A program made the translations under genes and the position numbers. A model generated the notes under the pieces. The model searched no databases. It had not been told where the DNA came from and saw nothing but the letters and a program-made list of their open reading frames with translations. Below, piece after piece: positions 8,063 to 63,227 of a DNA stretch of 64,000 bases. The first letter of the stretch is position 1. Every line of letters starts with the position of its first letter. Origin of the DNA: Candidatus Kryptoniota bacterium (lineage in GTDB: Bacteria > Bacteroidota > Ignavibacteria > Kryptoniales > JAKASW01); assembly GCA_049966155.1 (NCBI GenBank), contig JBMFVE010000002.1, positions 274,569-338,568 on the forward strand, written 5' to 3'.

Positions 8063-8104
8063 CAAAACATAAAAACGTTAATTGAATTAAAATTATTCCT
8101 GAAA

Positions 8105-9007: not shown

Positions 9008-9183
9008 ATTTTCTCCATTTACAGTTGTGAAAGATTGATTTGCCCTGAAAAAATCTTTCAGGTAAATATCAGATGTCGTTATTTATAAAATTTATTTTTC
9101 AGTCAGGACGTAATCAATTCCATAATTACACATTTTATTGTTGCCAGACAGAAGAAGCTGTCTGTGCTTTAATAAGAATGATT

Positions 9184-11832: not shown

Positions 11833-12032
11833 ATTAAGGCTCCATCTGAATAAGTTTGAAGCAACATTCACTGATACAGAGACCATTGACTGCCACTTAA
11901 ATTGCAATCCTGTTGATATTGAGGCAATAATTATAGCCCAATGTCCGCAGAGAATCAATGAATCGAGAAGCAGCCGAACGTTGCAACTCATTCAGGTCGT
12001 TATTAGTTTATAAAAACAAGAAACAGTTGAAA

Positions 12033-13766: not shown

Positions 13767-13778
13767 AGGAAGTTGAAA

Positions 13779-14753
13779 ATGAGATTAGCCGTAGCACAAA
13801 AGCTGGATGACAAAATGGTAAGCCTGATACAAAACAAATTGGGAAATCTGTGCGAGATTGATTTCATACACAAAGCTGATGATTCCATTAGAAAGGAGAG
13901 CCTGGTAAAAGCGGACATTGTAATGGCAATGAATATAAAAAGGGACTTAAAAGAAGAGGAGTTCGAACTCATAAAAAATGCAAAGCTAATTCAAATCACA
14001 CTTGCTGGCGCCGACATCATTCCGTTTGAAAAATTATCCCCCCATACAGTCGTCTGCAGTAATGGAGGTGCTTATAGCGATCCAATAGCGGAACATGCAA
14101 TGGGTATGATGTTGTCACTTGCCAGGAATTTCCTCCCCCTTCACAGGAGTCTCAGCAACGGCATTTTTGACCAGTGGACAAAACATAAGTTGCTGAAGGG
14201 ATCAACGCTTGGAATAATTGGATTTGGCGGCATCGGGAAACGAACTGCGGAATTAGCAAGAGGATTTGGTATGAAAATATTTGCAATTAACAAAACAGGC
14301 AAATCAGACATACATACTGACTTTATCGGAACTATAGACGATCTTGACTATCTTCTAAAAAATTCAGATTTCATTCTTTTATCTATTGCTCTCAATAAAC
14401 ACACAAAGAAAATAATTGGCAAAAGGGAGTTAGAATTAATGAAACCTGACGCAGTTCTGATTAATGTTGCCCGCGGAGACCTTGTGGATGAAGGTGCGTT
14501 GTACAACCACCTGAAAGCCAATCCTCAATTTAAGGCGGGAATTGAAGCCTGGTGGATAGAGCCTTTTAATTACCCAAAATTTGAAATTCACTACCCCTTT
14601 TTTGAACTGGACAACTTCCTGGGCTCACCTCATAATTCATACCTTGTGGATGGAATAATGATGAAGGCACTTGACGCCGCAGTGGATAACATTCTGGCTT
14701 ACATCGAGCAAAGACCACTGAAAAATATCCAGAATAGGGAAGATTACATATGA
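13779..14753 (+). CDS. D-isomer-specific 2-hydroxyacid dehydrogenase, NAD-binding
   Basis: GIIGFGGIGKRTAELARGFGMKIFA (Rossmann), INVARGDLVDE, SPHNS catalytic-His region. ATG 13779 follows AAGGAAG; the track start at 13773 is TTG. Confidence 0.85.
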   Translation: MRLAVAQKLDDKMVSLIQNKLGNLCEIDFIHKADDSIRKESLVKADIVMAMNIKRDLKEEEFELIKNAKLIQITLAGADIIPFEKLSPHTVVCSNGGAYSDPIAEHAMGMMLSLARNFLPLHRSLSNGIFDQWTKHKLLKGSTLGIIGFGGIGKRTAELARGFGMKIFAINKTGKSDIHTDFIGTIDDLDYLLKNSDFILLSIALNKHTKKIIGKRELELMKPDAVLINVARGDLVDEGALYNHLKANPQFKAGIEAWWIEPFNYPKFEIHYPFFELDNFLGSPHNSYLVDGIMMKALDAAVDNILAYIEQRPLKNIQNREDYI

Positions 14754-14771
14754 AAAGGGATTTAAAAGAAA

Positions 14772-14811
14772 GGCGGCGATGCATTGGGGAATTGCATCAA
14801 CCGCCCTTTTT
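14772..14811 (+). terminator. Rho-independent terminator, probably bidirectional (between convergent genes)
   Basis: GGCGG-c-GATGCA...TGCATC-aa-CCGCC stem followed by CTTTTT. The complementary strand also runs into a T-rich tract (TTTCTTTTAAAT). Confidence 0.7.
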
Positions 14812-14845
14812 GGGCTTCGCTTCAGGTGGGAAATTCAGCAAAGTG

Positions 14846-39200: not shown

Positions 39201-39361
39201 TTTCATCTGTCTGTAATGTCCTCAGCAGCCTCGAGGCTTCAATAGAAGGAGCAGATGCAGCTCCAACAGCTGGACAGCTGTCCGTTTATGAAGAGTACAG
39301 AAATAAGCTGGATTCTCTCCTCAAAAGGTGGGAAAAGCTGAAGAAGGACATGAACCGGTAA
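36257..39361 (+). CDS. Exported BNR/Asp-box (sortilin/VPS10-type, GH74-like double beta-propeller) protein
   Basis: Signal-like N-terminus. Repeated S-x-D-x-G-x-T-W type Asp-boxes (TTDAGQTW, SDDGGNSW, SENGGRTW, SSDGGHTW, STDAGNSW, SVDGGRTF, SIDSGKTW, TTDGGRHW, TTDNGRTW, YNDGKNW). Confidence 0.8.
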   Translation: MPRHLSIRFSKKLFTLMLFEVALTFLIQLHYPTNSYADSPFHHRFHSSLKWRFVGPYRGGWATMAAGIPSLPNTFYFGAAGGGVWKTTDAGQTWKGLMQHEKSSSIGAIAISTSNPNIVYAGTGQVDYRYDILSGDGIYKSDDGGNSWKNVGLSETGHIGMILIDPRNPDKVIVAALGHMFKSNPERGVYLSENGGRTWTKVLYVNDSTGAVDLAWDPGNPSVIYAAMWQVRMHPWLDYFYPQLANGSGIYKSSDGGHTWYKLSGNGLPEPPLGRIGIAVASGSNGNIVYATVIATGGKSGLYKSTDAGNSWVFVNNNASLANNYFSRLTVDPKDPNTVYVMGRSISKSVDGGRTFHFFKGAPGGDDYHYLWINPDNPSYMITASDQGCVISIDSGKTWSSWYNQPTGQFYSVAVDNQFPYKIYSGQQDNGTVGILSRGPYGVIEDRDWHPVGGDERDYDVPKPDNPRLIFGSGLGGHVSRFDDVTRQVVEVSPWPVSSYGAFPPAQKYRYTWITPIVFSKLPPYPLYFGAQVLFKSVDNGDHWEIISPDLTGRIKGMAATNDPDLKTARNAGFGAIFSIAPSPISRNVIWVGSDDGIISITTDGGRHWRNVTPPDIPLWSRIDAISPSHFSKSTAYVAVNLHRIGFNQPLILKTTDNGRTWRKIVNGIPDDEYTNSVEEDAVQPGLIFAATNRTIYFSYNDGKNWHKLNDGFPTTCVNALTIHNSDLIAATQGRGIWILDDIEPLRELSSGVLNQKAHLFKPVDAIRIRPNENKDTPWPPETPLGQNPPTGAVIDYWLKNAPLNPVKLTIEDSKGKTIAEFRSDEKPKPLKTEPRYFEEGWLGRGEELSAEPGIHRFVWNLRYPRPPALSYNYSIAAVWHDGTPLEPQGAFVLPGKYKVTLTVDGSEYSRLLVVKSDPRIHIDHSVLKKQLDLELNIYAELKKGTEVYRKITEVLSEQKHRYAKTLLDSLTDISNNGRPNISSVCNVLSSLEASIEGADAAPTAGQLSVYEEYRNKLDSLLKRWEKLKKDMNR

Positions 39362-41617: not shown

Positions 41618-42619
41618 TCAAACGTAAATATCATCGTAAATAGAATCCAGAGGGGGCTCAGGACTATTCTCAGCAAATTCCACTGCTTCTGAGATTGTTT
41701 TCTTCACATCAGTTTCAACTGACTCAATTTCCTTTTGCGTCGCAACCTTTTCTTCGAGCAAAAACCTCTTCATGTTTTCAATCGGGTCTCTCTTTTTCTC
41801 CTCTTCCACCTCCTGCTTCGTTCTATAAACTGCATCAGGATCTGACATTGAATGACCCCGATACCGATATGTTCTCACTTCAAGTAATGTCGGCAGACTC
41901 AGTTCACGGGCTTTCCTCACCGCTTCTCTTACAGCATCGTAAACTGAAAATACATTCATTCCATCTGCAACCATTCCTTCAATTCCATAAGAACACCCGC
42001 GTTTATAAAGTTCTGAAATAGCTGACGCTCGCTCTACTGCCGTGCCCATTCCATACAGGTTGTTTTCTATGATATAAACAACAGGTAATTTCCAGAGCGC
42101 TGCGATATTGAGGGACTCGTGGAACGTTCCCTGATTGACCGCTGCATCTCCCATAAACGTAAGGCAGACACGGTCTTCTTTCCTGTATTTTATTTTAAAT
42201 GCCACACCGGTGCCAAGCGGAATCTGTCCGCCCACAATTGCATGCCCTCCCAGCATGTTCCGCTCAACATCAAAGAAATGCATTGAACCACCCTTCCCCT
42301 TGCTGGTACCTGTGTACTTTCCAAAAAGTTCAGCCATGAGCTTCCTGGGGTCCGTGCCCCTCGCAAGGGCGTGGCCATGATCTCGATATGCAGTGATGAC
42401 GTAATCATCATCCCGTATGGCAGCTATCGACCCTACTGCAACAGCTTCCTGTCCAATGTACAAATGAAGAAACCCACCGATTTTTTGGAGTCCGTACATT
42501 TTTGCTGCGGCTTCCTCGAATCGACGAATCAACAACATTGATTTGTATATTTGAACGAGTTTGGCTCTCCCCAAACTCAAGTATTGTTCCATATTTGTTT
42601 CTATAGCGTAATCGCTCAT
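41618..42619 (-). CDS. pdhA: Pyruvate dehydrogenase E1 alpha subunit
   Basis: TPP motif GDAAVNQG...NN and the phospho-loop-type motif YRYRGHSMSDP, typical of PDH E1 alpha. Confidence 0.88.
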   Translation of the reverse strand: MSDYAIETNMEQYLSLGRAKLVQIYKSMLLIRRFEEAAAKMYGLQKIGGFLHLYIGQEAVAVGSIAAIRDDDYVITAYRDHGHALARGTDPRKLMAELFGKYTGTSKGKGGSMHFFDVERNMLGGHAIVGGQIPLGTGVAFKIKYRKEDRVCLTFMGDAAVNQGTFHESLNIAALWKLPVVYIIENNLYGMGTAVERASAISELYKRGCSYGIEGMVADGMNVFSVYDAVREAVRKARELSLPTLLEVRTYRYRGHSMSDPDAVYRTKQEVEEEKKRDPIENMKRFLLEEKVATQKEIESVETDVKKTISEAVEFAENSPEPPLDSIYDDIYV

Positions 42620-42642: not shown

Positions 42643-43509
42643 TTAAAAAACAACCTGTTGTTCTGCATGATATGAACTTCTAACCAGGGGTCCGGATTCA
42701 ACATATTTAAACCCAAGTTCAATCCCGATTTTTTTATATAATTCAAATTCAGAAGGCTTAACATAGCGGTCAATTGGAAGATGGTCTTTTGTGGGTTGCA
42801 GATATTGCCCAATTGTCAGTATATCCACTTTTACCTCACGCAAATCCTTCATAACCTCAATGACCTCATCATAACGTTCACCAATTCCCACCATCATTCC
42901 GCTTTTAGTAACCAATCCCTTTTCCTTAAAAAACTTTAAAACATCAAGTGACCGTTCGTATTTTGCCTGAGGTCTTACAAGGCTGTAAAGCCGTGGGACA
43001 GTTTCAACATTATGATTAAGGATATCAGGTCCAGCATCAGCAACGATGCTACAGGCAACCTCGTCGCCTTTGAAGTCGGGTATTAAAACTTCCACCCGAC
43101 AGGCATGGTTTTTTATTCTTATTTGTCTGATAGTCTCAGCAAAAATTCCTGCACCACCATCATTTAGCTCATCTCTGTTAACTGAGGTTATTACAACGTG
43201 CCTCAGTTTCATTGAGGCAACAGCTTCTGCAACCCTGCGTGGCTCGTCAGTATCCAGCTGGACAGGTCGACCGGTTTTAACTGCACAAAAGCCGCAGCTG
43301 CGGGTACAAACATCTCCAAGGATCATAAAAGTTGCTGTACCATGCCCCCAGCATTCACCTAAATTTGGACATCGAGCTTCTTCACAAACAGTGTGCAACT
43401 GTTTGCTCCTCATCAAATTCAAAATTTGCGAGTAGTTTTCACCATACGGTAATTTTGCACGTATCCAGTCTGGCCGGCGCGGTAGTTTCTTTTCTGTTAT
43501 ATCCATCAT
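42643..43509 (-). CDS. lipA: Lipoyl synthase
   Basis: [13 protein letters not shown] and the radical-SAM motif [10 protein letters not shown]. Confidence 0.93.
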
Positions 43510-46881: not shown

Positions 46882-47590
46882 GTTCTTTCTCCATATTTAT
46901 ATGAAAATGTTCCATGAAATTGCTTAATTCATAGGTTACAAACTCAGATTGAAATACATCTTGAAAAGCAGCAGCAACCAATGATTTTACCTGATTCATA
47001 TCGACTTCTTTTCGCAATACTTTCGAGAGTGACGTAACCCCCTTGTGAAAAATTCCACATGGAATAATTCTTTCGAAGTAAGATAAATCGGTGTTCACGT
47101 TGAACGCAAATCCATGCATTGTCACCCACCTGCTGACTTTAATACCAATAGCGCATATCTTTTCATCGCCGACCCAGACACCTGTGTAATCCAAATCACG
47201 CCTGCCGATAATACCAAATGACTGAAGCGTACGTATTACAACATCTTCCAGACCACGAATGTACCTGTGAACATCAGCTTTATCCCGACTTAAATCGAAA
47301 ATTGGATAAGCAACAAGCTGACCAGGACCATGGTAAGTGATATCACCACCTCTGTCCACTTTAAAGACACTCACACCCCTTGCTTTCAGTTCCTCATCTG
47401 ATGCAAGCAGGTGGTCTTCACCACCCGATTTACCAATTGTGTAAGTATGGTGGTGTTCGGTAAATAAAACAACATCAGGGATTGTCCCTGCAGTCCTTTC
47501 TGCATGAAAAAACTTCTGCATTTCCCATGCATGCAGATATTCTGTAAATCCTATGTCTATTATTATTCCTTTATTCACAGGACATTTCAA
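46868..47590 (-). CDS. lipB: Octanoyltransferase (lipoyl(octanoyl) transferase)
   Basis: RGGDITYHGPGQLVAYPI and KICAIGIKV. TTG start in a TTGA overlap with the lpd stop. Confidence 0.85.
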   Translation of the reverse strand: MKCPVNKGIIIDIGFTEYLHAWEMQKFFHAERTAGTIPDVVLFTEHHHTYTIGKSGGEDHLLASDEELKARGVSVFKVDRGGDITYHGPGQLVAYPIFDLSRDKADVHRYIRGLEDVVIRTLQSFGIIGRRDLDYTGVWVGDEKICAIGIKVSRWVTMHGFAFNVNTDLSYFERIIPCGIFHKGVTSLSKVLRKEVDMNQVKSLVAAAFQDVFQSEFVTYELSNFMEHFHINMEKEHASC

Positions 47591-51574: not shown

Positions 51575-51608
51575 AATAAAAAAGCCAGGTCTCAAACTTA
51601 GACCTGGC
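51575..51608 (-). terminator. Rho-independent terminator closing the cytochrome operon
   Basis: GCCAGGTCT-7 nt-AGACCTGGC perfect 9-bp stem, followed on the minus strand by TTTTTTATTT. Confidence 0.8.
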
Positions 51609-51637: not shown

Positions 51638-52495
51638 TTACCAGACCGTAAGTTCATGACCATATAAATTTAACTTCCCGTTTATATGCGTGCTATCAAC
51701 CATTGTCCCATTAGAATCTTTCAAGGTTGGATAATGACATTTAAAACATGTTTGAATTGTCTGTCCTTTATGAACAGAATTATTCGGAGGAATTCCATGG
51801 CAAGTACCGCAGGCAGCCTGATCATGACCCCCTGTCCATTTTGGTGAAAAGTTGTTTCCATTCTTGAAATTTCCATGGCAATAAGTGTTGGAGCAACTCA
51901 AGGTCTGAGAATTAAAAAATGGCGCAGGTGAAATGGTGGGCTGGGTGCTGTCATAATACTGACTTGAAGGAGTGTTGGTCGCAACAGTAGATAACCCGGA
52001 AAATGCAACTATTGCCGGGACTCCAAACGGATGGATACCTGGGCCCGCCTTCTGGGGAACAACATGACAGGAACTGCACCTGACACCTGAAGAAATAAAC
52101 CCACCACTGAGATGTACTCTGTGTGCTCCTACTCCCGGGCTTTCTGAACCTGTATTCCCGGACAGATCAACGGGAGGTGCTATTCCTGTGGAGTCTCCGT
52201 GGCATGTGTTGCAGGAGAGTGGTCCATTAATTCCCTGGTGACATGTGTAACAGGACTTTCCAGCTGTACCACCCTTAAAATCATTTCCATGACATGTAGC
52301 ACATGTGGACAAATCGTAGTGATTGTTCTTTATAAATTTGCCATGAAAGTTAGGAGAATTCATATCTGTCCACCCGGCTGGATGTATATCACCCTGGGAG
52401 GGTTGCGGTGCAAGTATGTTTTGCTGAAGCTTGCTGCATCCAGTTAATGAAACAGTGATTAACACCATAAATAAAATCGATAAGTATATTCTCAT
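51638..52495 (-). CDS. Lipoprotein multiheme c-type cytochrome (6 CXXCH + 1 CX4CH)
   Basis: Lipobox LTGC. CATCH, CYTCH, CNTCH, CSSCH, CSNTYCH, CGTCH, CFKCH. The CSNTYCHG...CGTCHG pairing resembles the Geobacter CxxxxCH...CXXCH domain. Confidence 0.85.
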   Translation of the reverse strand: MRIYLSILFMVLITVSLTGCSKLQQNILAPQPSQGDIHPAGWTDMNSPNFHGKFIKNNHYDLSTCATCHGNDFKGGTAGKSCYTCHQGINGPLSCNTCHGDSTGIAPPVDLSGNTGSESPGVGAHRVHLSGGFISSGVRCSSCHVVPQKAGPGIHPFGVPAIVAFSGLSTVATNTPSSQYYDSTQPTISPAPFFNSQTLSCSNTYCHGNFKNGNNFSPKWTGGHDQAACGTCHGIPPNNSVHKGQTIQTCFKCHYPTLKDSNGTMVDSTHINGKLNLYGHELTVW

Positions 52496-52507: not shown

Positions 52508-53758
52508 CTATTTTCTCCCGTGACAGTAACCGCAAAATCCAACGCCCGGGGTACCACCAGGATGGGCATTTGGATCTGTATGACAGGTGTAGCAAACCGC
52601 ACCTGCATCTGTGTGCCAATTTCCATCAACATCGCGCATATAAAAAGCAGAATGAGTTTTGGGATCGTTACCTTTTATACCATCGGGGTCATTATGACAT
52701 GTTACACAGGTGGGATCAGCACCCTGTATATCGTGACAGCTTGCACAACTTTCAATGTCCTTCCGTGCATAAACTGCATGCCTTCCACCTCCACTGCCAA
52801 CTCCAAAAGTTACAAAATCCCCTCCATCATGCCACACAGGTTTAATTCTCTCTCCGTTGGACTCATGGCATTTCACACAAAAGGTTCGCTCATCATGACA
52901 GGTATAGCAATTGCTTTCCCTTCCCTTCGCATCAATTGAATGAGTGAATCTATAATTGAGACTATGAACCCTTTGCACAGTAAGCTTTTTGTGGGTCGTC
53001 AGAGGAGAGAGTGTAGGGGTAGATGGCACATAAATTTGCGCCGGATTTAAATCCTTAGCAAGATTTGCTGCATCGTGGCACTCCTGACATGAAGCTGACG
53101 TGTGACATGACCTGCAATCATTTTGTGCCCCGCTAGCATTTACAAAATTTTTATGCTGTGTGATGAAATCAGAAGATTTGTGAGAAACAGGAATAAGATT
53201 GGCAAGATCCTTATGACAGGTTTCGCACCCGCCAGGCGCAGTTTTTACCAGCGATGCTTGAATTACAGTGTCCCTGGGGGCATTTCTTTCAAGTTGCCCG
53301 TGACAGGTTGTGCAAAGCGACATGCTTGGGAAAGCCCGGGCATCCTGATAAGCATAGTCGAACCTGTTTAGGTCCTGATGACAGGTTTCGCACTTAAGCT
53401 TAAGAGAGCTGTAATGTTCCTTATGTGAAAAATAAACCGTGCTCGATTTTTGAACAAGCTTTCGGTAAGCTGTGCTATCAGTACCAATATGACAGAACTC
53501 ACAGCTCGTAGAGGATTGATCGTGACATGTATAGCATGTCTCCATAGAGGGCATGAGATTATCGGTTTCGCTAATGCTGGAAGTGGCTTTCCCATGGCAG
53601 TCAGTGCATGAAGCTCCTACGTCATTGATATGCAATTTGTGTGAAAACTTAATCAATGAAGAATTGTTCAACTTTGGAGCATTCTTGACCGCAAACAAAT
53701 TTGAAATAGAAAGAAGAGCGACAATTAAAGCTATACTAAAAAAACTTATTTTATTCAT
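52508..53758 (-). CDS. Secreted 14-heme c-type cytochrome (cytochrome c3/c7-type repeats)
   Basis: Signal peptide, 14 CXXCH motifs counted, repeated F-x-H-x2-H...CxxCH pattern. Confidence 0.88.
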   Translation of the reverse strand: MNKISFFSIALIVALLSISNLFAVKNAPKLNNSSLIKFSHKLHINDVGASCTDCHGKATSSISETDNLMPSMETCYTCHDQSSTSCEFCHIGTDSTAYRKLVQKSSTVYFSHKEHYSSLKLKCETCHQDLNRFDYAYQDARAFPSMSLCTTCHGQLERNAPRDTVIQASLVKTAPGGCETCHKDLANLIPVSHKSSDFITQHKNFVNASGAQNDCRSCHTSASCQECHDAANLAKDLNPAQIYVPSTPTLSPLTTHKKLTVQRVHSLNYRFTHSIDAKGRESNCYTCHDERTFCVKCHESNGERIKPVWHDGGDFVTFGVGSGGGRHAVYARKDIESCASCHDIQGADPTCVTCHNDPDGIKGNDPKTHSAFYMRDVDGNWHTDAGAVCYTCHTDPNAHPGGTPGVGFCGYCHGRK

Positions 53759-53759
53759 A

Positions 53760-55064
53760 TCACTCTCCTTTCGAAAACCATGCCAGGTTTCTAAAGAAAT
53801 AATAATTAACCCGTAAGTAGCCTCTCATATCATTGAGATATACCGGATTTCTCAAATATTGAGCCTGAATGTCAAACGACAACAAACTCATTGGTCTGAA
53901 TGTCAACCCGAGAGTCCCACTGTAAATTCTGGTCAAATCTGACTGGCCCTGTAGATACCTGTAATCACTAAAAGACGCAGCACCAATTAAAATTAACTTT
54001 CTATTGAAGAGGGGATACAAAATCTGTGCGCTTACTCCGTTGAGATTGCCAGCAAAACCATCATTGTGGGAATAAGTAATTGAAAAAAGCCGGTAAGTTC
54101 CACCAACAGAAATCTGGGAGGCATTGTCTCCAGTATAATAAACCTTTCCAGCAGAAACGAAAAACGTAATATCGCTTGCAAAGAGGTAGTTCACCCCAAT
54201 ATCATACTCATCTGTTCCACTGTGGTCAAAAACAGAAAAAATTGAATTAAATGGGAGCCTCGAATCCCGGTGGAAATATTCAACATTTAATACAAGAGGG
54301 CGGAATATCGAATATCTGAGTGACGCTTCTGTGCGATTAAACTTTGAAAAATTAAGGTCATAGTCAACCCTCAAATAGCCTGAAGCTTTCTCGTTATAAT
54401 AAAAGATATCTCCAGATACAAACTGATTTGCAACAGACGATGGATCCACCAGAACAGTCCTGACATCCGATGGCGATCCAAGTGTATCCCTTCGCAACGC
54501 ATAGTAGCTTTCGGGCTTAAAGTTTTTATTCACATAGCTTCCTGTAAATGAAAGTCCTTCCACTGGCGAGTATGATGCCTGAGCCCCAATTAAATTGTTG
54601 TTTTTAATGTTGGAATTGATCTTGACAGACTCGTCATAAGGTGGCAGGATACCGCCAAAGAGAGTTATCTTTACCTTATCGTCAATCAATCTGGCATCGG
54701 CACTTAATCCATCTACAGCAGAAACGCCAACACGTGAAAAAACCGGCTGCCTTCCTAATTTCAAGGTGAAAACATCGCCAAGGTTTCTAATCTCGACGTA
54801 CAAATTTGCGGCGCGCAGCCGCGGATCACCACTCAACCTTGTAAGGAAGTCATTTGTTGCAAGAAGGTATGAATGCAATTGATATCTGGAATTTCCGAAA
54901 TTCAACTGCATTGCTTCGTACCCCCGCAAACTCAACTTGCTTGAATTGGTGGTATCATATTGCTGGTATGAGTAGAGAGTTGTGACAAACCTGCCACTAA
55001 ACAACTGCGCGCTCGCTTCACCCGAAAGGAAGAGGAGAAGAGCTAAAAACAGGATCTGTCTCAC
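53760..55064 (-). CDS. Putative outer-membrane beta-barrel protein (no heme motifs)
   Basis: GTG start after GGAAGG. Signal peptide MRQILFLALLLFLSGEASAQ. No Cys, alternating hydrophobic/polar strands rich in Y/F/G/N/S, aromatic-rich C-terminal region (RVNYYFF). Confidence 0.6.
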   Translation of the reverse strand: MRQILFLALLLFLSGEASAQLFSGRFVTTLYSYQQYDTTNSSKLSLRGYEAMQLNFGNSRYQLHSYLLATNDFLTRLSGDPRLRAANLYVEIRNLGDVFTLKLGRQPVFSRVGVSAVDGLSADARLIDDKVKITLFGGILPPYDESVKINSNIKNNNLIGAQASYSPVEGLSFTGSYVNKNFKPESYYALRRDTLGSPSDVRTVLVDPSSVANQFVSGDIFYYNEKASGYLRVDYDLNFSKFNRTEASLRYSIFRPLVLNVEYFHRDSRLPFNSIFSVFDHSGTDEYDIGVNYLFASDITFFVSAGKVYYTGDNASQISVGGTYRLFSITYSHNDGFAGNLNGVSAQILYPLFNRKLILIGAASFSDYRYLQGQSDLTRIYSGTLGLTFRPMSLLSFDIQAQYLRNPVYLNDMRGYLRVNYYFFRNLAWFSKGE

Positions 55065-55099: not shown

Positions 55100-55648
55100 T
55101 TACTTTGGAATCGGGTGTGCAATTTGTGCCCACATCTTACTGAAATCAAATCCTTTGAAAGTTGGACTCTTCTTGTTATGGCACTCTTCACATTTCTTCT
55201 GTGCGCTGCCATCTTTAACGGATAGAAGAATTAATCCGTTTTCAGCTGCTTTCTTTCGATCTTTCATAATGCTCATGGTCTTATAGTCGTTTCCTGGCCC
55301 GTGGCATGTCTCACACTGAACACCATCCTGTTTGTTGAACTTAGGACCAAGCAAAGATGCAGGAGCATTGTAAGCAGTAACGTGGCATTCAAGGCATTCT
55401 GGAGATTCTGACGGTTTGCCTTTTACTCCGTGCTCCTTCGCCACTTTTTCAGCTTCAGCAGTGAGGAGCGTCTTATAAGCCTGAGAATGCTTGCTGGCCT
55501 GCCACTTCTGGAACTGTTCTCCCTGTTTGGCAGTCTTGTGACACATTGCGCAGACCTGAACACCTACATATTGGTGCCCGGTTCCAGCGGCGTATGCCAA
55601 TGTAGTCACCATAAATAATGCCGCAATCATCTGAACTGTAGTTTTCAT
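55100..55648 (-). CDS. Periplasmic tetraheme c-type cytochrome (c554-like family)
   Basis: ATG 55648 after GGAGG, signal peptide. CAMCH, CLECH, CETCH, CEECH. The segment CAMCHKTAKQGEQFQKWQASKHSQAY is typical of the c554/multiheme family. Confidence 0.85.
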   Translation of the reverse strand: MKTTVQMIAALFMVTTLAYAAGTGHQYVGVQVCAMCHKTAKQGEQFQKWQASKHSQAYKTLLTAEAEKVAKEHGVKGKPSESPECLECHVTAYNAPASLLGPKFNKQDGVQCETCHGPGNDYKTMSIMKDRKKAAENGLILLSVKDGSAQKKCEECHNKKSPTFKGFDFSKMWAQIAHPIPK

Positions 55649-55685: not shown

Positions 55686-56090
55686 TTATATCTCATAATT
55701 AACTATACACTCATCGCAATAAGTTCTTGTTGGAGATTTTTCCAGCTGTTTTATACCTATGAACTTCCCACACCCCTCACAAATACCAAATAACCCAGAT
55801 TTAATCCTGCTCATTGCCAGTTCCAGCTCTTTCATCTCAGTTTCCTCCTTAATTGCCATTTCACACCTGTAGCCAGGTTCTATCTTGCAACGAGGGTTTT
55901 CCATATCGCACGTACTGCAAATGAATGCCTCACCGCTGGCAATGTTCATTACTGCATCTGGTTCAAGGTACATCACGCGCAAAAGGAATTCCATCCGTCT
56001 CTCTATTATTTTTCTAAAATGCCTGTTCAATTCAGGGTCAATTGTTACCTTTTCCTTCAATGTCATCCTTTCTAACTTTTGCGTTTCCAT
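55686..56090 (-). CDS. DksA/TraR C4-type zinc-finger protein (copy 2) with an extra Cys cluster
   Basis: CEGC-17 aa-CDEC, plus upstream CSTC..C..C. The start is uncertain (ATG 56090 or 56066; track TTG 56141). It overlaps the 3' end of the 892-aa gene by 29-53 nt. Confidence 0.65.
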   Translation of the reverse strand: METQKLERMTLKEKVTIDPELNRHFRKIIERRMEFLLRVMYLEPDAVMNIASGEAFICSTCDMENPRCKIEPGYRCEMAIKEETEMKELELAMSRIKSGLFGICEGCGKFIGIKQLEKSPTRTYCDECIVNYEI

Positions 56091-58716
56091 TGTCAACAAT
56101 GATATCCTCGCCCCCTTTCTCACGAAGACGCTGCAGTTCAAGTGGATGTTCCTTAAACATCTCCTCTTCGCTCAACATTCCAGTAATGCAGGCGGGATTA
56201 AGTGGATACACATCAGGATTAAAAATAACAAAATAAAAATGCCAGACGAGTATCGCCAGTGATGCCAGTACCGCTTCGTAGTAATGTATCAAAGTTGCAG
56301 CATCCATTCCAATCGGTCCAACAATCCCCAGAAAATAATTATTGAACCACAAAATGAATCCCGTTAATCCCATTATTACCGTTCCCCAAATTAATGCGAG
56401 ATACTCAAACTTTTCTATATAACTGAACCGACCCAACTGAGGCTTTTCTTTAGATAGACCCAAATTATATTTAAATACACCTACCAGATCTCTTAAATCC
56501 TGTACCTTCGGGATCATATCAATAACAAATTTCCTTCCACGTTCTGTAAAAATTACATAAAAAATGTGATAAATGGCATCCGCAATAAGTATAACAGCTG
56601 CTACCCTGTGAATTACCCCACGAAGTTCGACAAAGTTGTTACCAAAAATGTCCCTTATTGGCTTAACCCACCATGAGTCTGGAAATTTTAGCATAAAACC
56701 GGTTACCACAAGGGTAATAAAACTCAGCAACAATAATAAATGTTGTATCCGTTCGTTCAGTGTCATTCTCAAGTAAAGTTTATAACCGGTCGACCAGGTT
56801 GTGTCATACCCTCTTTGATGACGCATTCTTCTAATGACTTTCTTTGTGAAGTCTAAAACATTATGAAAAACCATCATCCCAATTGTGCCTATAATAAGTA
56901 CGATATATATCTGCGATATCCAGAAAAGGAGAGGTTCTTTTCTGGATGAAGGAAGTACATGAACTTGGCCTGCTACAAATCTTTTATCCGCTCCCGGATG
57001 GCATTTCCCGCATGTCGATGCGAGATTCTTGGGATTTATTGGAGATGTTGGATCAGACGATGGCTTTATGTCGTGAGCACCATGACAACTTGCACAGTTT
57101 GCGACAGTTGCCGACCCTCCCTGCATAGCCAATCCGTGATAGCTGTCCAGGTAACTAACTACAGCGTGTGAAGGCAACTTATACCTGGATGTCAACTGTA
57201 CGGAGCCATGGCACTGAGAACATGCGCGCGCCACATTGACATTGGATACAGTTGACTGTGGATTCCCAGGCGATAATATCTGATGCATCCCGTGGCAATC
57301 AGTACAAACAGGAGCATCCTTATTCCCTGCAACAAGTGCCTCCCCATGAATTCCTTTCATATATTTTGTAAAAACCTCGTCATGACAACCGGCCTGTCCA
57401 CATGTCCCCGGGATATTGTTTTTAAAGACCTTCGAGTCAGGATCACCTGCAGGCAGCATATCATGTGCACCATGACAGTCACTGCAGGTAGCCGCTTTCA
57501 AGTTTCCCCTCGAAAGGGCAACCATATGGACACTGTTTTTTATGCTTAGCAGGAAGGCCGCAGATACTCCCGTCATATTCAGCACTTCTTTATTTTCGAC
57601 GTGACACTTCAGACATAAATTGGGCTCGTTGGCACGACTTGTTGGTGCATTTGGATTCCTTATAGATTCAATTGAATGCTCTTCATGACAATCTGTGCAC
57701 ACCGGAGCATACTTAATCCCATGTAAAAGAGCTTTACCATGGGAGGATTTCAAATAGTGTTCCTCAACATCACTATGGCATTTCCCGCATGTTCTTACAA
57801 TATTTGCTCGATTCACACTCGATGTCGGATCATTTGCAGGCTTAATAGTATGACCTTCGTGACAATCTACACAGGTAGCTCCTTTTTGATTCTTATTGAG
57901 AAGATCTGCATGAATGCTGTGAGAATATTGCTCTACCAGTGAAGTAAGTTGAACCCCGCCGGTTGATTTCATCCCTTTAAAAAGCTTCTGATTCGTGTGA
58001 CACTTAAAACATGCGTTTTTTGAGATTTCCCTGGAATCATTAACGGTTCTATGTGCCGTGTGACATGTCACACATGTAAGCACTCCATCAGCAAGCGGTA
58101 TTTTATGGATCCCCGCTGCTACCGCTGCACTGTCAGATTTGTGGCATGTCGAACACATCCTGGTTTGATCTTGAGGAAGGATGTTTTTCACCACCTGAAC
58201 TTTATGAGCTTTCAAATGGCATGATTCACATGAAAATAAAGAGTCGGCAACCTTCACACCGGAATGCCGTGAAGTGAGATATGACTTCTCTCTTTGATGG
58301 CATTTTAAGCAAAACTGAGCCGAAGCAAGTTTTTCAGGCGGATAAATATCATGGGTACCATGACAACCAGAGCAGCTAACTTTTTCGTGTGCAAATTTCG
58401 ACCGTTCAACCCTGGAAGTACCGAATTTAACATCGTGGCAATTATTGCAATTAACTGTTAAAACCCCCTTACTGTGTGGAATTGAATCTGGATTAAAACC
58501 AACATGACAATCCACACAGGCTAATTCACCGTGAACTGATGAATCGAAAATTTTCGAATCGACATAGAGACTTAATTCCTTCCCGTTCCTTTTGGTTGTG
58601 AGGGAGCTGTCAGAATGGCAGACAAGGCAGTCATTATTTCCCTCTGGAAATCCAGCCTGTGAGGTTAAAATAAGAATGAAAACGATTTCGACAATTCTAA
58701 AATAGTTTTTAATCAT
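56038..58716 (-). CDS. 19-heme c-type cytochrome fused to a C-terminal 4-5 TM cytochrome-b (HydC/FdnI-like) module
   Basis: Signal/anchor. 18 CXXCH + 1 CX4CH (CGQAGCH) in aa 30-575. aa ~595-840 holds five hydrophobic helices with conserved His (IQH, IHR..YH, IH..WH). Confidence 0.88.
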   Translation of the reverse strand: MIKNYFRIVEIVFILILTSQAGFPEGNNDCLVCHSDSSLTTKRNGKELSLYVDSKIFDSSVHGELACVDCHVGFNPDSIPHSKGVLTVNCNNCHDVKFGTSRVERSKFAHEKVSCSGCHGTHDIYPPEKLASAQFCLKCHQREKSYLTSRHSGVKVADSLFSCESCHLKAHKVQVVKNILPQDQTRMCSTCHKSDSAAVAAGIHKIPLADGVLTCVTCHTAHRTVNDSREISKNACFKCHTNQKLFKGMKSTGGVQLTSLVEQYSHSIHADLLNKNQKGATCVDCHEGHTIKPANDPTSSVNRANIVRTCGKCHSDVEEHYLKSSHGKALLHGIKYAPVCTDCHEEHSIESIRNPNAPTSRANEPNLCLKCHVENKEVLNMTGVSAAFLLSIKNSVHMVALSRGNLKAATCSDCHGAHDMLPAGDPDSKVFKNNIPGTCGQAGCHDEVFTKYMKGIHGEALVAGNKDAPVCTDCHGMHQILSPGNPQSTVSNVNVARACSQCHGSVQLTSRYKLPSHAVVSYLDSYHGLAMQGGSATVANCASCHGAHDIKPSSDPTSPINPKNLASTCGKCHPGADKRFVAGQVHVLPSSRKEPLLFWISQIYIVLIIGTIGMMVFHNVLDFTKKVIRRMRHQRGYDTTWSTGYKLYLRMTLNERIQHLLLLLSFITLVVTGFMLKFPDSWWVKPIRDIFGNNFVELRGVIHRVAAVILIADAIYHIFYVIFTERGRKFVIDMIPKVQDLRDLVGVFKYNLGLSKEKPQLGRFSYIEKFEYLALIWGTVIMGLTGFILWFNNYFLGIVGPIGMDAATLIHYYEAVLASLAILVWHFYFVIFNPDVYPLNPACITGMLSEEEMFKEHPLELQRLREKGGEDIIVDNGNAKVRKDDIEGKGNN

Positions 58717-59027
58717 GTTGAAGTAGAAGATGAGCTATTCTTTTCATTGATCACACTTTCACATGAAGGGCATAACCGCGCTGTAAGGTTCTCCTTTAAG
58801 ATAGCTGAAGGAATATCATGACGGCAGATGACACACTGTCCATATGTTCCTTTCTCAATCATTTTCAACGCAAAAGAAAGTTCATTCAGATTCGGATCAT
58901 CTAACTTACCGCAGGCTTCTAACACCCTGCGTTTTCCTTCCGCTCGAACATTATAGCGTTCCAGCAGGATTAGTGCCATTCTTCCTATTACTAACTTCTC
59001 GAATAACGACAGTTCATCTGGTTTCAT
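58713..59027 (-). CDS. DksA/TraR C4-type zinc-finger protein (copy 1)
   Basis: CVIC-17 aa-CPSC. ATGA overlap with the 892-aa cytochrome start. The track start at 59048 is TTG and I use the ATG at 59027. Confidence 0.65.
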   Translation of the reverse strand: MKPDELSLFEKLVIGRMALILLERYNVRAEGKRRVLEACGKLDDPNLNELSFALKMIEKGTYGQCVICRHDIPSAILKENLTARLCPSCESVINEKNSSSSTST

Positions 59028-59043
59028 TTTAAAAATGCCATAG

Positions 59044-59060
59044 TTCAATCATTGTGCCGA
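59044..59060 (-). promoter_or_regulatory. Sigma-54-like -24/-12 element CGGCAC-N5-TTGA upstream of the cytochrome operon
   Basis: Minus strand reads TCGGCACAATGATTGAA, ending 17 nt before the ATG at 59027. A sigma-54 activator gene lies 2.9 kb away. Confidence 0.4.
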
Positions 59061-59189: not shown

Positions 59190-59238
59190 ATCAACAAAAG
59201 GCTGCTGCCGGAGTCAGATGTGGGAACTCCGGCAGCAG
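59190..59238 (-). terminator. Rho-independent terminator (or protein-binding inverted repeat)
   Basis: Perfect 13-bp stem CTGCTGCCGGAGT-11 nt-ACTCCGGCAGCAG, followed on the minus strand by CCTTTTGTTGATT. Confidence 0.6.
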
Positions 59239-59407: not shown

Positions 59408-59791
59408 TCATCGCGAAATCCCTTCAGCAGCTTTATTCTCTACTGAGGTTATTTCTTTAATCATATTGTTCAAATTCGACAGGTTCATAGGGGCTTCAGA
59501 ATACACATAAAAGTTTTCTTTCACGGACGGAGTTTCCTCACCACAGCACTGCAGGAGAAAAAGAACATTGCGAGCTAATCCATCCCTGATGACCCATTCA
59601 TAAGAGTCGCCGGGCAAACGGGTTGTTGCAACTATAAGCAATGACACAGGCAATGGAAATGAAACATTCCATTCAACAACCTGGTAGCCCTCACGGCTGA
59701 GGAATTTACTGAGGAGGTCATACATTGCCCTCTCATCTGAGATTATACCAATTTTGCCTGAAAATTGCCTGTCGCTCATCAGATACAACAT
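59408..59791 (-). CDS. Hypothetical small protein, degenerate receiver-like
   Basis: The track start at 59872 is TTG. In-frame ATGs lie at 59791 (after GAGGG) and 59779. The pattern IGIISDE...GYQV...SLLIVATT loosely resembles a CheY fold that lacks the acidic pocket. Confidence 0.4.
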   Translation of the reverse strand: MLYLMSDRQFSGKIGIISDERAMYDLLSKFLSREGYQVVEWNVSFPLPVSLLIVATTRLPGDSYEWVIRDGLARNVLFLLQCCGEETPSVKENFYVYSEAPMNLSNLNNMIKEITSVENKAAEGISR

Positions 59792-59793
59792 TG

Positions 59794-59807
59794 TCAACCC
59801 TCGTGCC
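59794..59807 (-). promoter_or_regulatory. Second copy of the GGCAC-N5-TTGA motif
   Basis: Minus strand reads GCGGCACGAGGGTTGACA, immediately upstream of ATG 59791 and 14 nt upstream of ATG 59779. Confidence 0.3.
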
Positions 59808-60039: not shown

Positions 60040-61908
60040 ATGCTCAGCAGTCTTAGGTCAAAAGTTGCAGTTGGATTTACAGTCCTCGTATCAATTAACG
60101 TCGTGGTAAGCATCTGGTCAATTTATAATTTTAACGAGCTTGCTGATGCAATTGCAACCATGATAAAGCAGAACTATCAAAACATCACGGCTGCTCAATA
60201 TATGGTTGTGGCCTTAGAGAGAGAAAACAGTGCCCAGCTTGTGATGCTAAATGGTGATGTCGAAGGGGGACTGGCTCAGTTTAACGACAACCACGCCAAC
60301 TTCTTAAACTGGTTTTCACAGGCATCTGCTTCCGCTGTTCCCGATGGTGGAGAACAGGTCTTATCCAAAATTCAGTATATGTACAAAAGATATACAGCGG
60401 CAACAGACTCCCTTGTTATGATTATCAGGAAATATGGACTGATGAACGGCCAGAACTATCACTATATGAAGATTCTTCCTTTGTTTACACAACTTAAGGA
60501 ATCCTGTTTTCAACTCCTTGACATGAACCACAATGCAATGATTGAAACCGATACCAAGGCGCACAACATAGCGAACCAGGCTACCGTGGCTGTAATCGGA
60601 GCCTCATTAATCGCCATTATACTCAGCATTGTTGCCAGCTGGCAGTTCTCTCAGTATATAATTGAACCGGCTGAGAAACTTACCGAAACCGTACGCAAAA
60701 TTGGAAGAGGAATCCTGGATGCACGAGCAGATGAAAGTACAAATGATGAAATAGGTGAACTGAGCCGGGAGTTCAATAAAATGACGGCTCGCCTGCGCAA
60801 ATATGACGAAATCAATGTTGAAAAACTTGTTTCAGAAAAGAAAAAATCTGAGGCAATTGTAGCTACAATATCTGACCCAATAATTGTGACGGACTCCCAG
60901 GGGAGGATAGTCCTTCTAAACGAACTGGCTGAACTCCTCTTTAACGTTACAGAAGAGGAGGCTATGGAAAAGATGTTTGGGGAGGTTGTAAAAAATGAAC
61001 AGCTTTCAGGCTATGTCCGCCGTTGTCTGGATGGAGAGCTCAGTCCGAACATTCCTCCATATTTTGAATTAAAATTTCAGAATGAAGTCCGTTACTTCAG
61101 GATAAAAATTAACCATGCCACGGATAAATCTGGCAGGGTCACCGGATGTGTACTTATTCTCCAGGACGTTACACAGTTTAAAGAGCTCGACAGAATGAAA
61201 TCAGAATTTATGGCACGCGTCTCACATGAGTTCCGAACACCGCTGACATCAATTAACATGACAATTGACATACTTAAGGACGAGCATGTTGGTAAGGTAA
61301 ATGACCACCAGAGAGAGCTTCTTATTGCTGCAAAACAGGATGCGGAAAGATTGACCAAATTGGTCCGCGACCTGCTTGAACTTTCCAGATTGCAGTCGGG
61401 CCGAATACAACTTAAAGAGGATGTAATTACTGCAGGCTATCTTATTGATTTTTCAATCCAGCCAATCCTGTTGCAGTTTCATGATAAAAATGTAAACCTT
61501 ACAAAAACTGTCGACCCTGCAATTCCACCGTTTAAAGGCGACCTGCAACAGCTTTCCTGGGTCATCTCTAACCTTGTTACAAATGCCCTTCGGTTTACCA
61601 ATCCAGAAGGATCGGTGGATATTACAGCTTCGTTTGACGGGCAAAATTTAATCATATCTGTCCGCGACACGGGCAGCGGCATCGATCAGAAGGAGCTTGA
61701 AAAAATTTTCGACAAGTTTGTCCAGCTTGAAGACAGTGGAAGTCCAACCCCTGGCTCTGTTGGACTCGGCCTCTCTATTGCAAAAGAAATTGTTGAACTT
61801 TATGGGGGCCGCATATGGGCAGAAAGTCGGGTCGGCAAAGGTAGCACATTTACATTCACAATTCCTATAAAAGAAAGGATCGTAACAGATAACGTAGAAA
61901 CAATATGA
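60040..61908 (+). CDS. Membrane sensor histidine kinase (periplasmic 4-helix-type sensor, HAMP, PAS, HisKA, HATPase_c)
   Basis: Two TM segments. H-box SHEFRTPLTS, N-box ISNLVTNALRF, DTGSGI, GLGLSIAKEIV. Confidence 0.88.
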   Translation: MLSSLRSKVAVGFTVLVSINVVVSIWSIYNFNELADAIATMIKQNYQNITAAQYMVVALERENSAQLVMLNGDVEGGLAQFNDNHANFLNWFSQASASAVPDGGEQVLSKIQYMYKRYTAATDSLVMIIRKYGLMNGQNYHYMKILPLFTQLKESCFQLLDMNHNAMIETDTKAHNIANQATVAVIGASLIAIILSIVASWQFSQYIIEPAEKLTETVRKIGRGILDARADESTNDEIGELSREFNKMTARLRKYDEINVEKLVSEKKKSEAIVATISDPIIVTDSQGRIVLLNELAELLFNVTEEEAMEKMFGEVVKNEQLSGYVRRCLDGELSPNIPPYFELKFQNEVRYFRIKINHATDKSGRVTGCVLILQDVTQFKELDRMKSEFMARVSHEFRTPLTSINMTIDILKDEHVGKVNDHQRELLIAAKQDAERLTKLVRDLLELSRLQSGRIQLKEDVITAGYLIDFSIQPILLQFHDKNVNLTKTVDPAIPPFKGDLQQLSWVISNLVTNALRFTNPEGSVDITASFDGQNLIISVRDTGSGIDQKELEKIFDKFVQLEDSGSPTPGSVGLGLSIAKEIVELYGGRIWAESRVGKGSTFTFTIPIKERIVTDNVETI

Positions 61909-63227
61909 GTCTTAAAGTTTTGCTGGTTGACGATGAACAAAACATCCTGAGGACCATGACGATTTGCCTTCAATCAATAGGCCTTCAGGTAAATCCAGTT
62001 CCAAATCCGTCCGACGCGCTGGAACTTGCAAGCAAAGAGCATTTTGATATTGCCTTTCTGGACTTAAAAATGAAGCCAATGGACGGCATTCAATTGATGA
62101 CAGAAATAAAAAAAATAAACCCGGAAATTCTGGTCGTAATTGTAACAGCACACGGATCTATCGATACCGCTGTCGAAGCTATTAAAAAGGGAGCATATGA
62201 TTATCTACAGAAACCTTTTGATTTCCAGGAACTTCAACATTTTACAGAAAAAGTAGTTGAATACTACAACCTCCAAAGAGAGGTAAAAGATCTGCAAAAG
62301 CGGCTGCATGAATATCAAATGCCTGGAGAAATTGTCACAAAGAATCCACATATGCTTCAACTCCTTAACTTATCAAGAGAAGTAGCCGACACAACAATTA
62401 GCGTTTTGCTCCAGGGTGAAAGCGGCACAGGAAAAGAACTGTTTGCAAAGTTTATCCACGATTCAAGCTCCCGCAAAGACAAACCATTCGTGACAGTAAA
62501 TTGCGCTGCCCTTTCAGAAAACCTCCTTGAAAGTGAACTTTTTGGACATGTAAGAGGAGCTTTTACAGGAGCAGTTAAAGACAGAGAAGGAAGATTCGAA
62601 CTGGCTGATGGTGGGACAATCTTCCTCGACGAGATAACTGAAATCCCGACCACGACTCAAGCAAAGCTGCTAAGATTTCTTCAGAGCAGAGAATTTGAAC
62701 GCGTTGGTGATTCACAAACTCGGAGAGTGGATGTGAGATTTATATCTGCCACAAACCGCGACTTGAATGAAGCGCTCACGTCCGGGAAACTTCGGGAAGA
62801 CCTTTATTATCGTATCAATGGTGTCACCATCAAGCTTCCACCTCTTCGTGAGCGTCCGGAGGACATCCCCCTGCTGATCAAACATTTCATTAGAAAATTT
62901 TCACAGGGTTCTGAACCAGATATTTCTGCAGAAGCATTTAAGCTTTTAATAAATTATCAATGGCCAGGAAATGTCCGACAGTTAGAAAACGTCATGGAAA
63001 GAGCTGTTCTCCTTGCCCACGGCAAGCGTATAGAGCCTTACCACCTTCCTGAAGAGATTCAAAATATGAATGTGACGACAAAACGACTCCTTTCCCTGGA
63101 AGAATTGGAGAAGGAGCACATCATTCGCGTTCTCAGAGAAACTGCAACAGCCGAGGAAGCAGCAAGTGTCCTGGGCATTGATCCGGCAACACTCTGGCGT
63201 AAGAAGAAGAAGTATGGAATCAACTGA
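61905..63227 (+). CDS. Sigma-54-dependent response regulator (NtrC family: receiver + AAA+ + Fis-type HTH)
   Basis: ATGA overlap with the kinase. Receiver VLLVDDEQ...FLDLKMKPMDG. Walker A GESGTGKE, GAFTGA loop, FLDEI, PLRERPEDI, C-terminal HTH AASVLGIDPATLWRKKKKYGI. Confidence 0.92.
   Translation: MSLKVLLVDDEQNILRTMTICLQSIGLQVNPVPNPSDALELASKEHFDIAFLDLKMKPMDGIQLMTEIKKINPEILVVIVTAHGSIDTAVEAIKKGAYDYLQKPFDFQELQHFTEKVVEYYNLQREVKDLQKRLHEYQMPGEIVTKNPHMLQLLNLSREVADTTISVLLQGESGTGKELFAKFIHDSSSRKDKPFVTVNCAALSENLLESELFGHVRGAFTGAVKDREGRFELADGGTIFLDEITEIPTTTQAKLLRFLQSREFERVGDSQTRRVDVRFISATNRDLNEALTSGKLREDLYYRINGVTIKLPPLRERPEDIPLLIKHFIRKFSQGSEPDISAEAFKLLINYQWPGNVRQLENVMERAVLLAHGKRIEPYHLPEEIQNMNVTTKRLLSLEELEKEHIIRVLRETATAEEAASVLGIDPATLWRKKKKYGIN

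Follow-up and report, generated by a model that had tools for sequence, protein, structure and literature searches.

Analysis of a 64,000-nucleotide (nt) stretch of contig JBMFVE010000002.1 of a Candidatus Kryptoniota bacterium (the 64-kb window) showed the presence of two small genes of the DksA/TraR type, here called copy 1 and copy 2, inside an operon of multihaem cytochrome genes. All genes of the operon are located on the minus strand, and the gene pair for a histidine kinase and a sigma-54 activator is divergent, on the plus strand. Copy 1 directly precedes the gene of an 892-amino-acid (aa) cytochrome c/b fusion protein, and copy 2 is located between this gene and the gene of a tetrahaem c554-like cytochrome (Table 1).

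Both open reading frames (ORFs) contain the exact spacing C-x2-C-x17-C-x2-C given for them in an earlier sequence-only reading of the locus, as CVIC-x17-CPSC in copy 1 and CEGC-x17-CDEC in copy 2. The bare spacing was rejected as a detector because it is unspecific: three haem-motif stretches of the window also match it, and the assignment of the ORFs to the DksA type therefore rests on homology. By sequence inspection, no N-terminal hydrophobic signal-like segment is present in either protein, in agreement with the earlier statement that signal peptides are absent.

Membership of both proteins in the DksA/TraR superfamily, also proposed earlier, was borne out by sequence comparison and by the predicted fold. 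The NCBIfam model DksA_like (NF033459), with a cut-off of 105, matches copy 1 with 35 bits (E 1e-8) and copy 2 with 42 bits (E 1e-10); the model TIGR02420 gives 22 and 34 bits, respectively, against a cut-off of 115.5, and NF008045 gives 28 bits against 289. The TraR model TIGR02419 matches copy 2 with 18 bits against a cut-off of 59.7 and gives no match to copy 1. For PF01258, copy 2 scores 24.6 bits, 0.3 under the cut-off of 24.9, and copy 1 has no match to any Pfam model. Sequence searches against solved structures returned DksA proteins only (2KQ9, 1TJL and 4IJJ), over the finger and the preceding helix, 2KQ9 being the best match for both copies.

The AlphaFold2 model of copy 1 has a predicted local distance difference test score (pLDDT) of 91.9 and contains helices at residues 3-25, 32-40 and 45-59, a zinc ribbon, a helix at 74-79 and a C-terminal helix at 87-101. 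The model of copy 2 has a pLDDT of 74.8, with the long helices and the finger confidently predicted and with a short C-terminal helix (126-132) in its low-confidence end. Both proteins are longer than members of the TraR family and have a predicted two-helix hairpin. In Foldseek searches of both models against the PDB, the top eight matches all belong to the DksA family, with probabilities of 0.98-1.00, while the next match does not exceed 0.33; the DksA matches have TM-scores of about 0.35-0.72 over 96-128 aligned columns, and DksA in complex with RNA polymerase (7KHI chain M) is among them. The profiles of copy 1 and copy 2 align with each other from one end to the other (hhalign probability 96.5%); the difference is an insertion at the hairpin tip of copy 2 that holds a second cysteine cluster.

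In Escherichia coli DksA, the tip of the hairpin carries the motif DxxDxA (D71-A76), in which D74 and A76 are essential, and the intact motif is taken as the indicator of DksA-like function (PMC4010833). This motif, looked for by alignment to DksA, is absent from both copies. In copy 2, the tip position is occupied by C-x2-C-D-x-E-x-K-R-C, part of the additional four-cysteine (Cys4) cluster. The presence of this cluster was correctly noted in the sequence-only reading, whereas its spacing is C-x2-C-x6-C-x7-C and not x8 as given there. Since, in the profile alignment to 1TJL, the third extra cysteine and the Arg before it fall on R75-A76 of DksA, the cluster appears to replace the DxxDxA loop, at about the tip-to-finger distance of DksA. 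Conservation of copy 2 is highest in the knuckle formed by the cluster and in its flanks, and the cysteines of the cluster are invariant in 15 orthologues and in 52 sequences. Conservation in copy 1, according to the alignment of 15 homologues, is centred on the finger domain. By tip motif and by curated scores, both proteins fall outside DksA proper, and they fall outside the TraR family as well.

Both ORFs are real genes under purifying selection. Comparison of the window with L001, an orthologous locus 72-78% identical to it, gave ratios of nonsynonymous to synonymous substitution rates (dN/dS) of 0.082 for copy 1 and of 0.084 for both copy 2 and the cytochrome gene, with dS near saturation.

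The stop codon TGA of copy 1 and the start codon ATG of the 892-aa gene overlap exactly as ATGA. This overlap had been considered a mark of stoichiometric co-translation, a view that did not hold, as eight other same-strand gene pairs of the window overlap by 4 nt likewise (2237-2240, 4008-4011, 6047-6050, 28564-28567, 41618-41621, 43506-43509, 47587-47590 and 61905-61908). The 4-nt junction is the norm in this genome and no special sign of the DksA-like genes. The step from translational coupling to a stoichiometric complex was rejected on the same ground, such overlaps being routine in the window.

The start of copy 2 inside the 3' end of the cytochrome gene, with overlaps of 53 or 29 nt, fits ATG codons at 56090 and 56066, but the start is ambiguous. 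TTG at 56060 was chosen by the gene caller on a 99%-identical contig (P0016). TTG at 56030 is located 8 nt past the cytochrome stop and would give no overlap; of 14 orthologous loci, 9 have ATG at the same position. ATG at 56066 is favoured, because, with one or two exceptions, the loci shown keep an in-frame ATG within the last 45 nt or so of the upstream gene, mostly about 22-26 nt before its stop, with a purine-rich sequence just 5' in most of them.

Homologues of copy 1 were found in 15 clusters. Orthologues of copy 2 were found in about 65 clusters at E <1e-25, and generic DksA/TraR proteins begin, after a gap, at about 1e-5. When one genome per species was scanned, full-length orthologues of copy 1 were present in 17 genomes, all of them metagenome-assembled genomes (MAGs) labelled Candidatus Kryptoniota, Bacteroidota or Bacteroidetes; other phyla gave matches to the finger only. 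Gene order is identical in these 17 species-level genomes at 47-59% protein identity and comprises the divergent activator and kinase genes, the receiver-like gene, copy 1, the c/b fusion, copy 2 and the genes of the c554-like cytochrome, the porin-like protein, the 14-haem cytochrome and the lipoprotein cytochrome. None of the 14 loci long enough to include its position lacks copy 2. The junction of copy 1 with the fusion gene reads ATGA in 14 of 19 loci, and in the others TAAATG or TAGATG is found, or the two genes are separated by 11 nt at the most. Four loci (L011, L012, L013 and L015) carry additional cytochrome b and multihaem genes past the fusion gene; two of them, L011 and L012, are long enough to show copy 2, which is still located directly before the c554-like gene. 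Locus L017 has its additional genes in front of copy 1, which still directly precedes the fusion gene.

Placement of the two genes is thus strictly conserved, which contradicts their interpretation as generic, unlinked DksA paralogues, the outcome that the sequence-only reading had named as speaking against its proposal. That generic paralogues or non-functional ORFs entered the operon by chance is hardly credible. Small ORFs of the DksA/TraR type are common, the cysteine spacing also occurs in haem motifs of the window, and 4-nt overlaps are generic there; however, this explanation is contradicted by the synteny and selection data, namely, the identical gene order at the protein identities given above, the dN/dS of about 0.08 and the retention of both positions when other genes are inserted, as well as by the sharp gap between the orthologue family and generic DksA/TraR proteins.

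Several variations of the locus were observed. The inserts of L011, L012, L013 and L015 (about 13000-17600 of these loci) contain genes of two PF01292 b-type cytochromes, of a 343-aa multihaem protein and of a 664-aa multihaem protein of the NapC/NirT type, and the insert of L017 before copy 1 (6779-9726) consists of a pair of genes encoding proteins of 684 and 298 aa. In one MAG (L007/L019, about 10300-13080) the fusion gene is split into ORFs of 175 and 694 aa, about 110 nt apart, which represents either a true split or pseudogenization or an assembly error. Copy 2 and the c554-like gene are separated by 37 nt in the window and by 270-420 nt in L009, L014, L017 and L023, where an internal regulatory element would have room.

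Copy 2 belongs to a wider family with eight cysteines, and this family, together with the replacement of the tip, is the strongest element of the analysis. A search of 1.8 billion cluster representatives with a profile hidden Markov model (HMM) of copy 2 gave 2010 matches at E <=1e-3, 20 of them at E <=1e-10. Among the best 148 matches, 34 carry C-x2-C-x6-C-x7-C followed by 27 residues and then the finger. When 38 diverse members were aligned, no columns other than those of the eight cysteines were invariant, and mean column identity was 26%. The few named members originate from MAGs of Bacteroidota and Ignavibacteriales. At least 120 metagenome loci matched the codon spacing of the eight cysteines, and the HMM search found no family members among them, the matches being cysteine-rich false positives.

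Genomic contexts of seven distant members were analyzed. Three are located directly 5' of a malic enzyme gene or one gene from it, and a fourth (P0102) overlaps by 4 nt an unannotated downstream gene, in a neighbourhood otherwise like that of member P0111. In locus L059 (8001-8959) the distant member is the first gene of an operon for 2-oxoacid:ferredoxin oxidoreductase (POR) and overlaps by 4 nt the first oxidoreductase gene; one member is located between the gene pair for pyruvate:ferredoxin oxidoreductase (PFOR) and dihydroorotate dehydrogenase on the one side and ackA-pta on the other, and one has uninformative neighbours. None of the seven is located inside a cytochrome operon. Placement in an electron-transfer operon is specific to the Kryptoniota clade, and the family overall is found with genes of anaerobic energy metabolism. 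In MAGs of Ignavibacteriales and Bacteroidota, the site next to malic enzyme appears to be where the family has its housekeeping position.

The layout of the leader gene in L059 is the same as that of copy 1 with the cytochrome gene. In L056, L057, L058, L181 and L182 (gene at 8001 or its equivalent) a family member is located just 5' of a gene for a malic enzyme/PTA fusion, and in L057 and L058 the malic-enzyme-linked member is found near dnaA, with a divergent DUF2279 gene.

The sequence-only reading had also considered a cytoplasmic partner of the 892-aa cytochrome. This role is disfavoured: copy 2 goes with the periplasmic and outer-membrane module, and the wider family adjoins soluble cytoplasmic enzymes. 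Since distant members are located beside enzyme genes and not beside cytochrome genes, a regulator fits better than a cytochrome subunit. A cytoplasmic subunit of the 892-aa cytochrome was rejected on the behaviour of the genes in synteny and on the gene neighbourhoods in which the wider family is found.

The same family data bear on a further explanation, according to which copy 2 and its eight-cysteine relatives are small cytoplasmic redox proteins with two Fe(Cys)4 or Fe-S centres that would pass electrons to or from the membrane cytochrome or other oxidoreductases, acting as electron partners and not as regulators. It would account for the eight cysteines being the sole invariant columns and for the frequency of redox neighbours (POR and PFOR, hydrogenase-linked genes and cytochromes). 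We consider it very improbable nevertheless. One of the two Cys4 sets is the canonical zinc finger of DksA, which is structural; in Kryptoniota copy 2 goes not with the membrane cytochrome but with the periplasmic and outer-membrane module, beyond the reach of a cytoplasmic carrier; and malic enzyme and acetate kinase/PTA, encoded next to other members, are not redox enzymes of the ferredoxin type. Furthermore, we know of no precedent for an electron carrier with a long helical hairpin.

Regulation of the operon was analyzed by its promoter motifs. The sequence GGCAC-N5-TTGA has two matches in the window, one about 30 nt 5' of the ATG of copy 1 and one before the receiver-like gene. In the window alone this number is not significant (two found against 0.72 expected; at least two in 17 of 100 shuffles), and therefore the weight of the motif rests on its conservation across loci. 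The element of copy 1 is found at the same position in the window, in L001 and in 14 of 17 species-level loci, and that of the receiver-like gene is kept in 16 of 17. The spacing of the element is that of sigma-54 promoters, with A replacing the usual C at -12. No sigma-54-type motif was found 5' of copy 2. In nearly all orthologous loci (L001 and L009-L024) both elements read TTGA rather than the usual TTGC at -12, which suggests a lineage-specific preference or a different promoter logic.

The promoter element before copy 1 and the terminator-like hairpin past the last gene are most simply read as the limits of a single transcript of about 7.5 kb, which would have copy 1 as its first gene and would be activated by the neighbouring kinase/activator pair; the activator would then control the promoter of copy 1. 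In orthologues of the pair, the Pfam domains Response_reg, Sigma54_activat and HTH_8 were read in the activator. The link to the neighbouring sigma-54 system suggested earlier thus stands as co-regulation, owing to the conserved element directly 5' of copy 1, and not as a partnership of the proteins.

The 124-aa receiver-like gene is kept in all loci and has a dN/dS of 0.11. A profile search of its product against solved structures gave weak matches to receiver domains (E about 0.04), and the product is therefore tentatively regarded as a probable pseudo-receiver of the same regulatory circuit. It has Ala at the position of the phospho-acceptor Asp and a conserved QCC motif.

With moderate confidence, both DksA-like proteins are proposed to be operon-encoded factors of RNA polymerase's secondary channel, the tip of copy 2 being held by a metal site. 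According to this scheme, the kinase and the sigma-54 activator would switch the operon on, and both copies, cytoplasmic proteins, would be produced from the same sigma-54-type-promoted transcript as the electron-export conduit and would then adjust the behaviour of RNA polymerase, either directly on this long operon, for example during elongation, or by redistribution of polymerase between promoters. Copy 2, with a hairpin of DksA-like length, would deliver a metal-bound four-cysteine knuckle where DksA delivers an acidic loop. Because this knuckle stands in place of DxxDxA, copy 2 would not act on polymerase in the manner of DksA, and metal or redox state could govern its activity. Copy 1, as probably the same protein without the insertion at the tip, may dock without reaching the active centre and serve as a competitor or modulator. 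By freeing core polymerase, an operon-encoded factor could also give positive feedback.

The scheme has precedents in the literature. TraR, a small homologue of DksA whose gene is part of the tra operon of the F plasmid, reprograms host transcription (PMC9239242); respiratory genes are regulated by DksA homologues (bioRxiv 10.1101/2023.01.17.523660); the cysteines of DksA are redox sensors (PMC4850274). According to references cited in PMC2725144, DksA and ppGpp are thought to act on sigma-54 promoters indirectly, by freeing core polymerase.

A number of findings weigh against the assignment to secondary-channel factors. Neither copy contains DxxDxA, taken as the indicator of DksA-like function, and copy 1 most resembles the short proteins Atu0905 (2KQ9) and RSP0166, the latter of which showed no DksA-like function (PMC4010833). 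The tip of copy 1 (residues 26-31) is variable among the 15 homologues, and its hairpin is shorter than that of E. coli DksA by about 10 residues per helix, with the DksA ranges taken from PMC4010833. Both proteins score far under the curated DksA and TraR cut-offs, and residues 41-80 of copy 2, the region of the extra cysteines, are modelled at a pLDDT of 56-64. K98 and R129, which we take to be ppGpp-site residues of DksA, are replaced in copy 2 by Glu and by Ser or another variable residue, so any action of it would be independent of ppGpp.

These features could also be explained by a DksA fold that does not bind RNA polymerase. Such proteins might provide feedback on induction of the operon in the local circuit, for example by binding the sigma-54 activator, the kinase or the receiver-like protein, or might act in the cytoplasm as holders or targeting factors of the very long apocytochromes before Sec export. 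The missing DxxDxA motif and the likeness of copy 1 to a short DksA-like class without DksA function (PMC4010833) agree with this explanation, as do the conservation of copy 1 on the globular finger domain instead of the hairpin tip, the kinase, activator and receiver-like genes that always accompany the operon, and the position of each copy directly 5' of one cytochrome module. However, the wider family adjoins cytoplasmic enzymes, which require no export and, in the loci analyzed, no such signalling pair, and the predicted structural likeness spans the entire architecture by which DksA binds RNA polymerase. To our knowledge, no protein of the DksA/TraR fold has a role in a local circuit or in apocytochrome handling. 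On balance, a non-polymerase partner appears rather unlikely.

Comparison of the proposed polymerase factors with known systems shows both likenesses and differences. With DksA of E. coli (1TJL, 5VSW) and DksA2 of Pseudomonas aeruginosa (4IJJ), the two proteins share, in their predicted structures, the helical hairpin and the CxxC-x17-CxxC finger domain, followed by a predicted C-terminal helix that in copy 2 is short and of low confidence, as well as similar sequence near the finger (FIGIKQLE compared with EIGIRRLE in DksA), and in copy 2 the tip-to-finger distance is about equal. Unlike DksA, the copies lack DxxDxA, with a Cys4 knuckle in copy 2 and a shorter hairpin with a variable tip in copy 1; their scores amount to 22-42 bits against cut-offs of 105-115; and they are encoded inside a respiratory operon, whereas dksA is a stand-alone housekeeping gene. 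Atu0905 (2KQ9) and RSP0166 are similar to the copies in size (about 105-112 aa) and in their short hairpin, but retain a DxxDxA-like sequence that is absent here; RSP0166 of Rhodobacter sphaeroides is anaerobically induced, and PMC4010833 reports no link between these proteins and such an operon. TraR of the F plasmid and Orf73 of phage lambda are, likewise, small proteins of the superfamily encoded in a functional operon, and act on RNA polymerase without ppGpp (PMC9239242). TraR differs in its length of about 73 aa, in a single N-terminal helix that replaces the hairpin and in the lack of a second cysteine cluster, but by analogy it may be a model for how the copies work.

In open-access literature, neither DksA-like genes in electron-transfer operons nor an eight-cysteine variant of DksA was found, this absence being weak evidence. 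Secondary-channel factors, including DksA, TraR and the Gre factors, form a small and well-studied set, and all DksA-type factors known to us that act on catalysis or initiation use an acidic tip. If the proposal is correct, a widespread subfamily with a Cys4 metal tip would represent a new way of addressing the active centre of polymerase and could provide a direct redox or metal input into transcription.

A broader version, which we regard as speculative and clearly unlikely in its entirety, is that the eight-cysteine proteins constitute an undescribed class of secondary-channel factors with a metal knuckle instead of DxxDxA. With iron or an Fe-S centre in the knuckle, polymerase would be coupled to redox or iron status; a pair of sensing copy 2 and tip-less copy 1 would tune the conduit, and the family would tune enzymes of the pyruvate/acetyl-CoA node in other anaerobes of the Fibrobacterota-Chlorobiota-Bacteroidota (FCB) group. 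The spacing C-x2-C-x6-C of the copy 2 knuckle presumably resembles that of the cluster ligands of FNR.

The two small proteins may in any case serve as handles on the regulation of the conduit, and the locus marks a conserved and probably sigma-54-controlled operon of electron export in an uncultured phylum. Even if the copies do not bind polymerase, their strict conservation suggests an accessory function in expression or assembly of the conduit.

Table 1. Genes and sequence elements of the operon and its divergent regulatory pair (coordinates of the window)
Feature	Position	Strand	Remarks
Lipoprotein cytochrome c, 6-7 haem	51638..52495	-	6 CXXCH + 1 CX3-4CH; GSu_C4xC__C2xCH; lipobox LTGC read from sequence
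14-haem cytochrome c	52508..53758	-	14 CXXCH; Pfam Cytochrome_C7 and MtrC/MtrF domain
434-aa secreted protein, presumed outer-membrane porin	53760..55064	-	Position kept between cytochromes in all loci
Tetrahaem cytochrome c554-like	55100..55648	-	Pfam Cytochrome_C554, E 7e-21; 4 CXXCH; GGAGG Shine-Dalgarno
Copy 2, eight-cysteine protein of predicted DksA fold, 126 aa from ATG 56066	55686..56066	-	Alternative starts 56090, 56060, 56030
Copy 2 C4 zinc-finger codons CEGC..CDEC	55707..55781	-	Aligns to DksA finger C114-C138
Copy 2 extra Cys4 cluster CSTC-x6-C-x7-C, predicted at helical hairpin tip	55863..55919	-	
892-aa inner-membrane cytochrome c/b fusion, 19 haem-c sites and PF01292	56038..58716	-	
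Copy 1, 104 aa from ATG, short protein of predicted DksA fold, tip motif not conserved	58713..59027	-	
Copy 1 C4 zinc-finger codons CVIC..CPSC	58761..58835	-	All four Cys invariant in 15-homologue alignment
Sigma-54-type element GGCAC-N5-TTGA, about 30 nt 5' of copy 1 ATG	59045..59058	-	Motif and conservation
124-aa receiver-like ORF	59408..59782	-	Upstream of copy 1; probable pseudo-receiver
Sigma-54-type element before receiver-like gene	59794..59807	-	Motif and conservation
Histidine kinase	60040..61908	+	Divergent from operon
Sigma-54 enhancer-binding response regulator, 440 aa, GAFTGA motif	61905..63227	+	Divergent from operon
Intrinsic terminator-like hairpin and T-run, operon end	51584..51608	-	9-bp stem, 6 GC pairs, then TTTTTTATTT

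By its gene content, the operon appears to encode an extracellular-electron-transfer conduit composed of the c/b fusion, a tetrahaem cytochrome of the periplasm, a porin-like protein, the 14-haem cytochrome and the lipoprotein cytochrome. Haem-motif counts in its cytochromes are 19, 4, 14 and 7, and signal peptides and the lipobox are readable in the sequences. The 892-aa protein contains 18 CXXCH motifs and one CX4CH, which by motif count makes 19 haem sites; its Pfam matches are Cytochrome_C7, Cytochrom_c3_2 and Ni_hydr_CYTB, the b-type domain PF01292 being C-terminal. In the 434-aa protein a signal peptide is readable, yet neither Pfam nor NCBIfam gave any match to it, and it is presumed to be the porin of the conduit. 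The architecture of the 892-aa cytochrome is, we assume, that of the CbcL type of Geobacter, a likeness by architecture and not by sequence comparison. Porin-cytochrome conduits of Geobacter with a CbcL-type cytochrome presumably have the same parts list as this operon, compared by parts and not by sequences, and no conduit operon of Geobacter that contains DksA-like genes is known to us or was met in the open-access literature.

A terminator-like hairpin was read by eye 3' of the receiver-like gene, at about 59193-59238 of the minus strand, as GCTGCCGGAGT..ACTCCGGCAGC followed by a T-run. Elsewhere in the window, very large ORFs were observed, among them those of 1552, 1589 and 1034 aa (14846-19504, 31137-35906, 36257-39361 and others).

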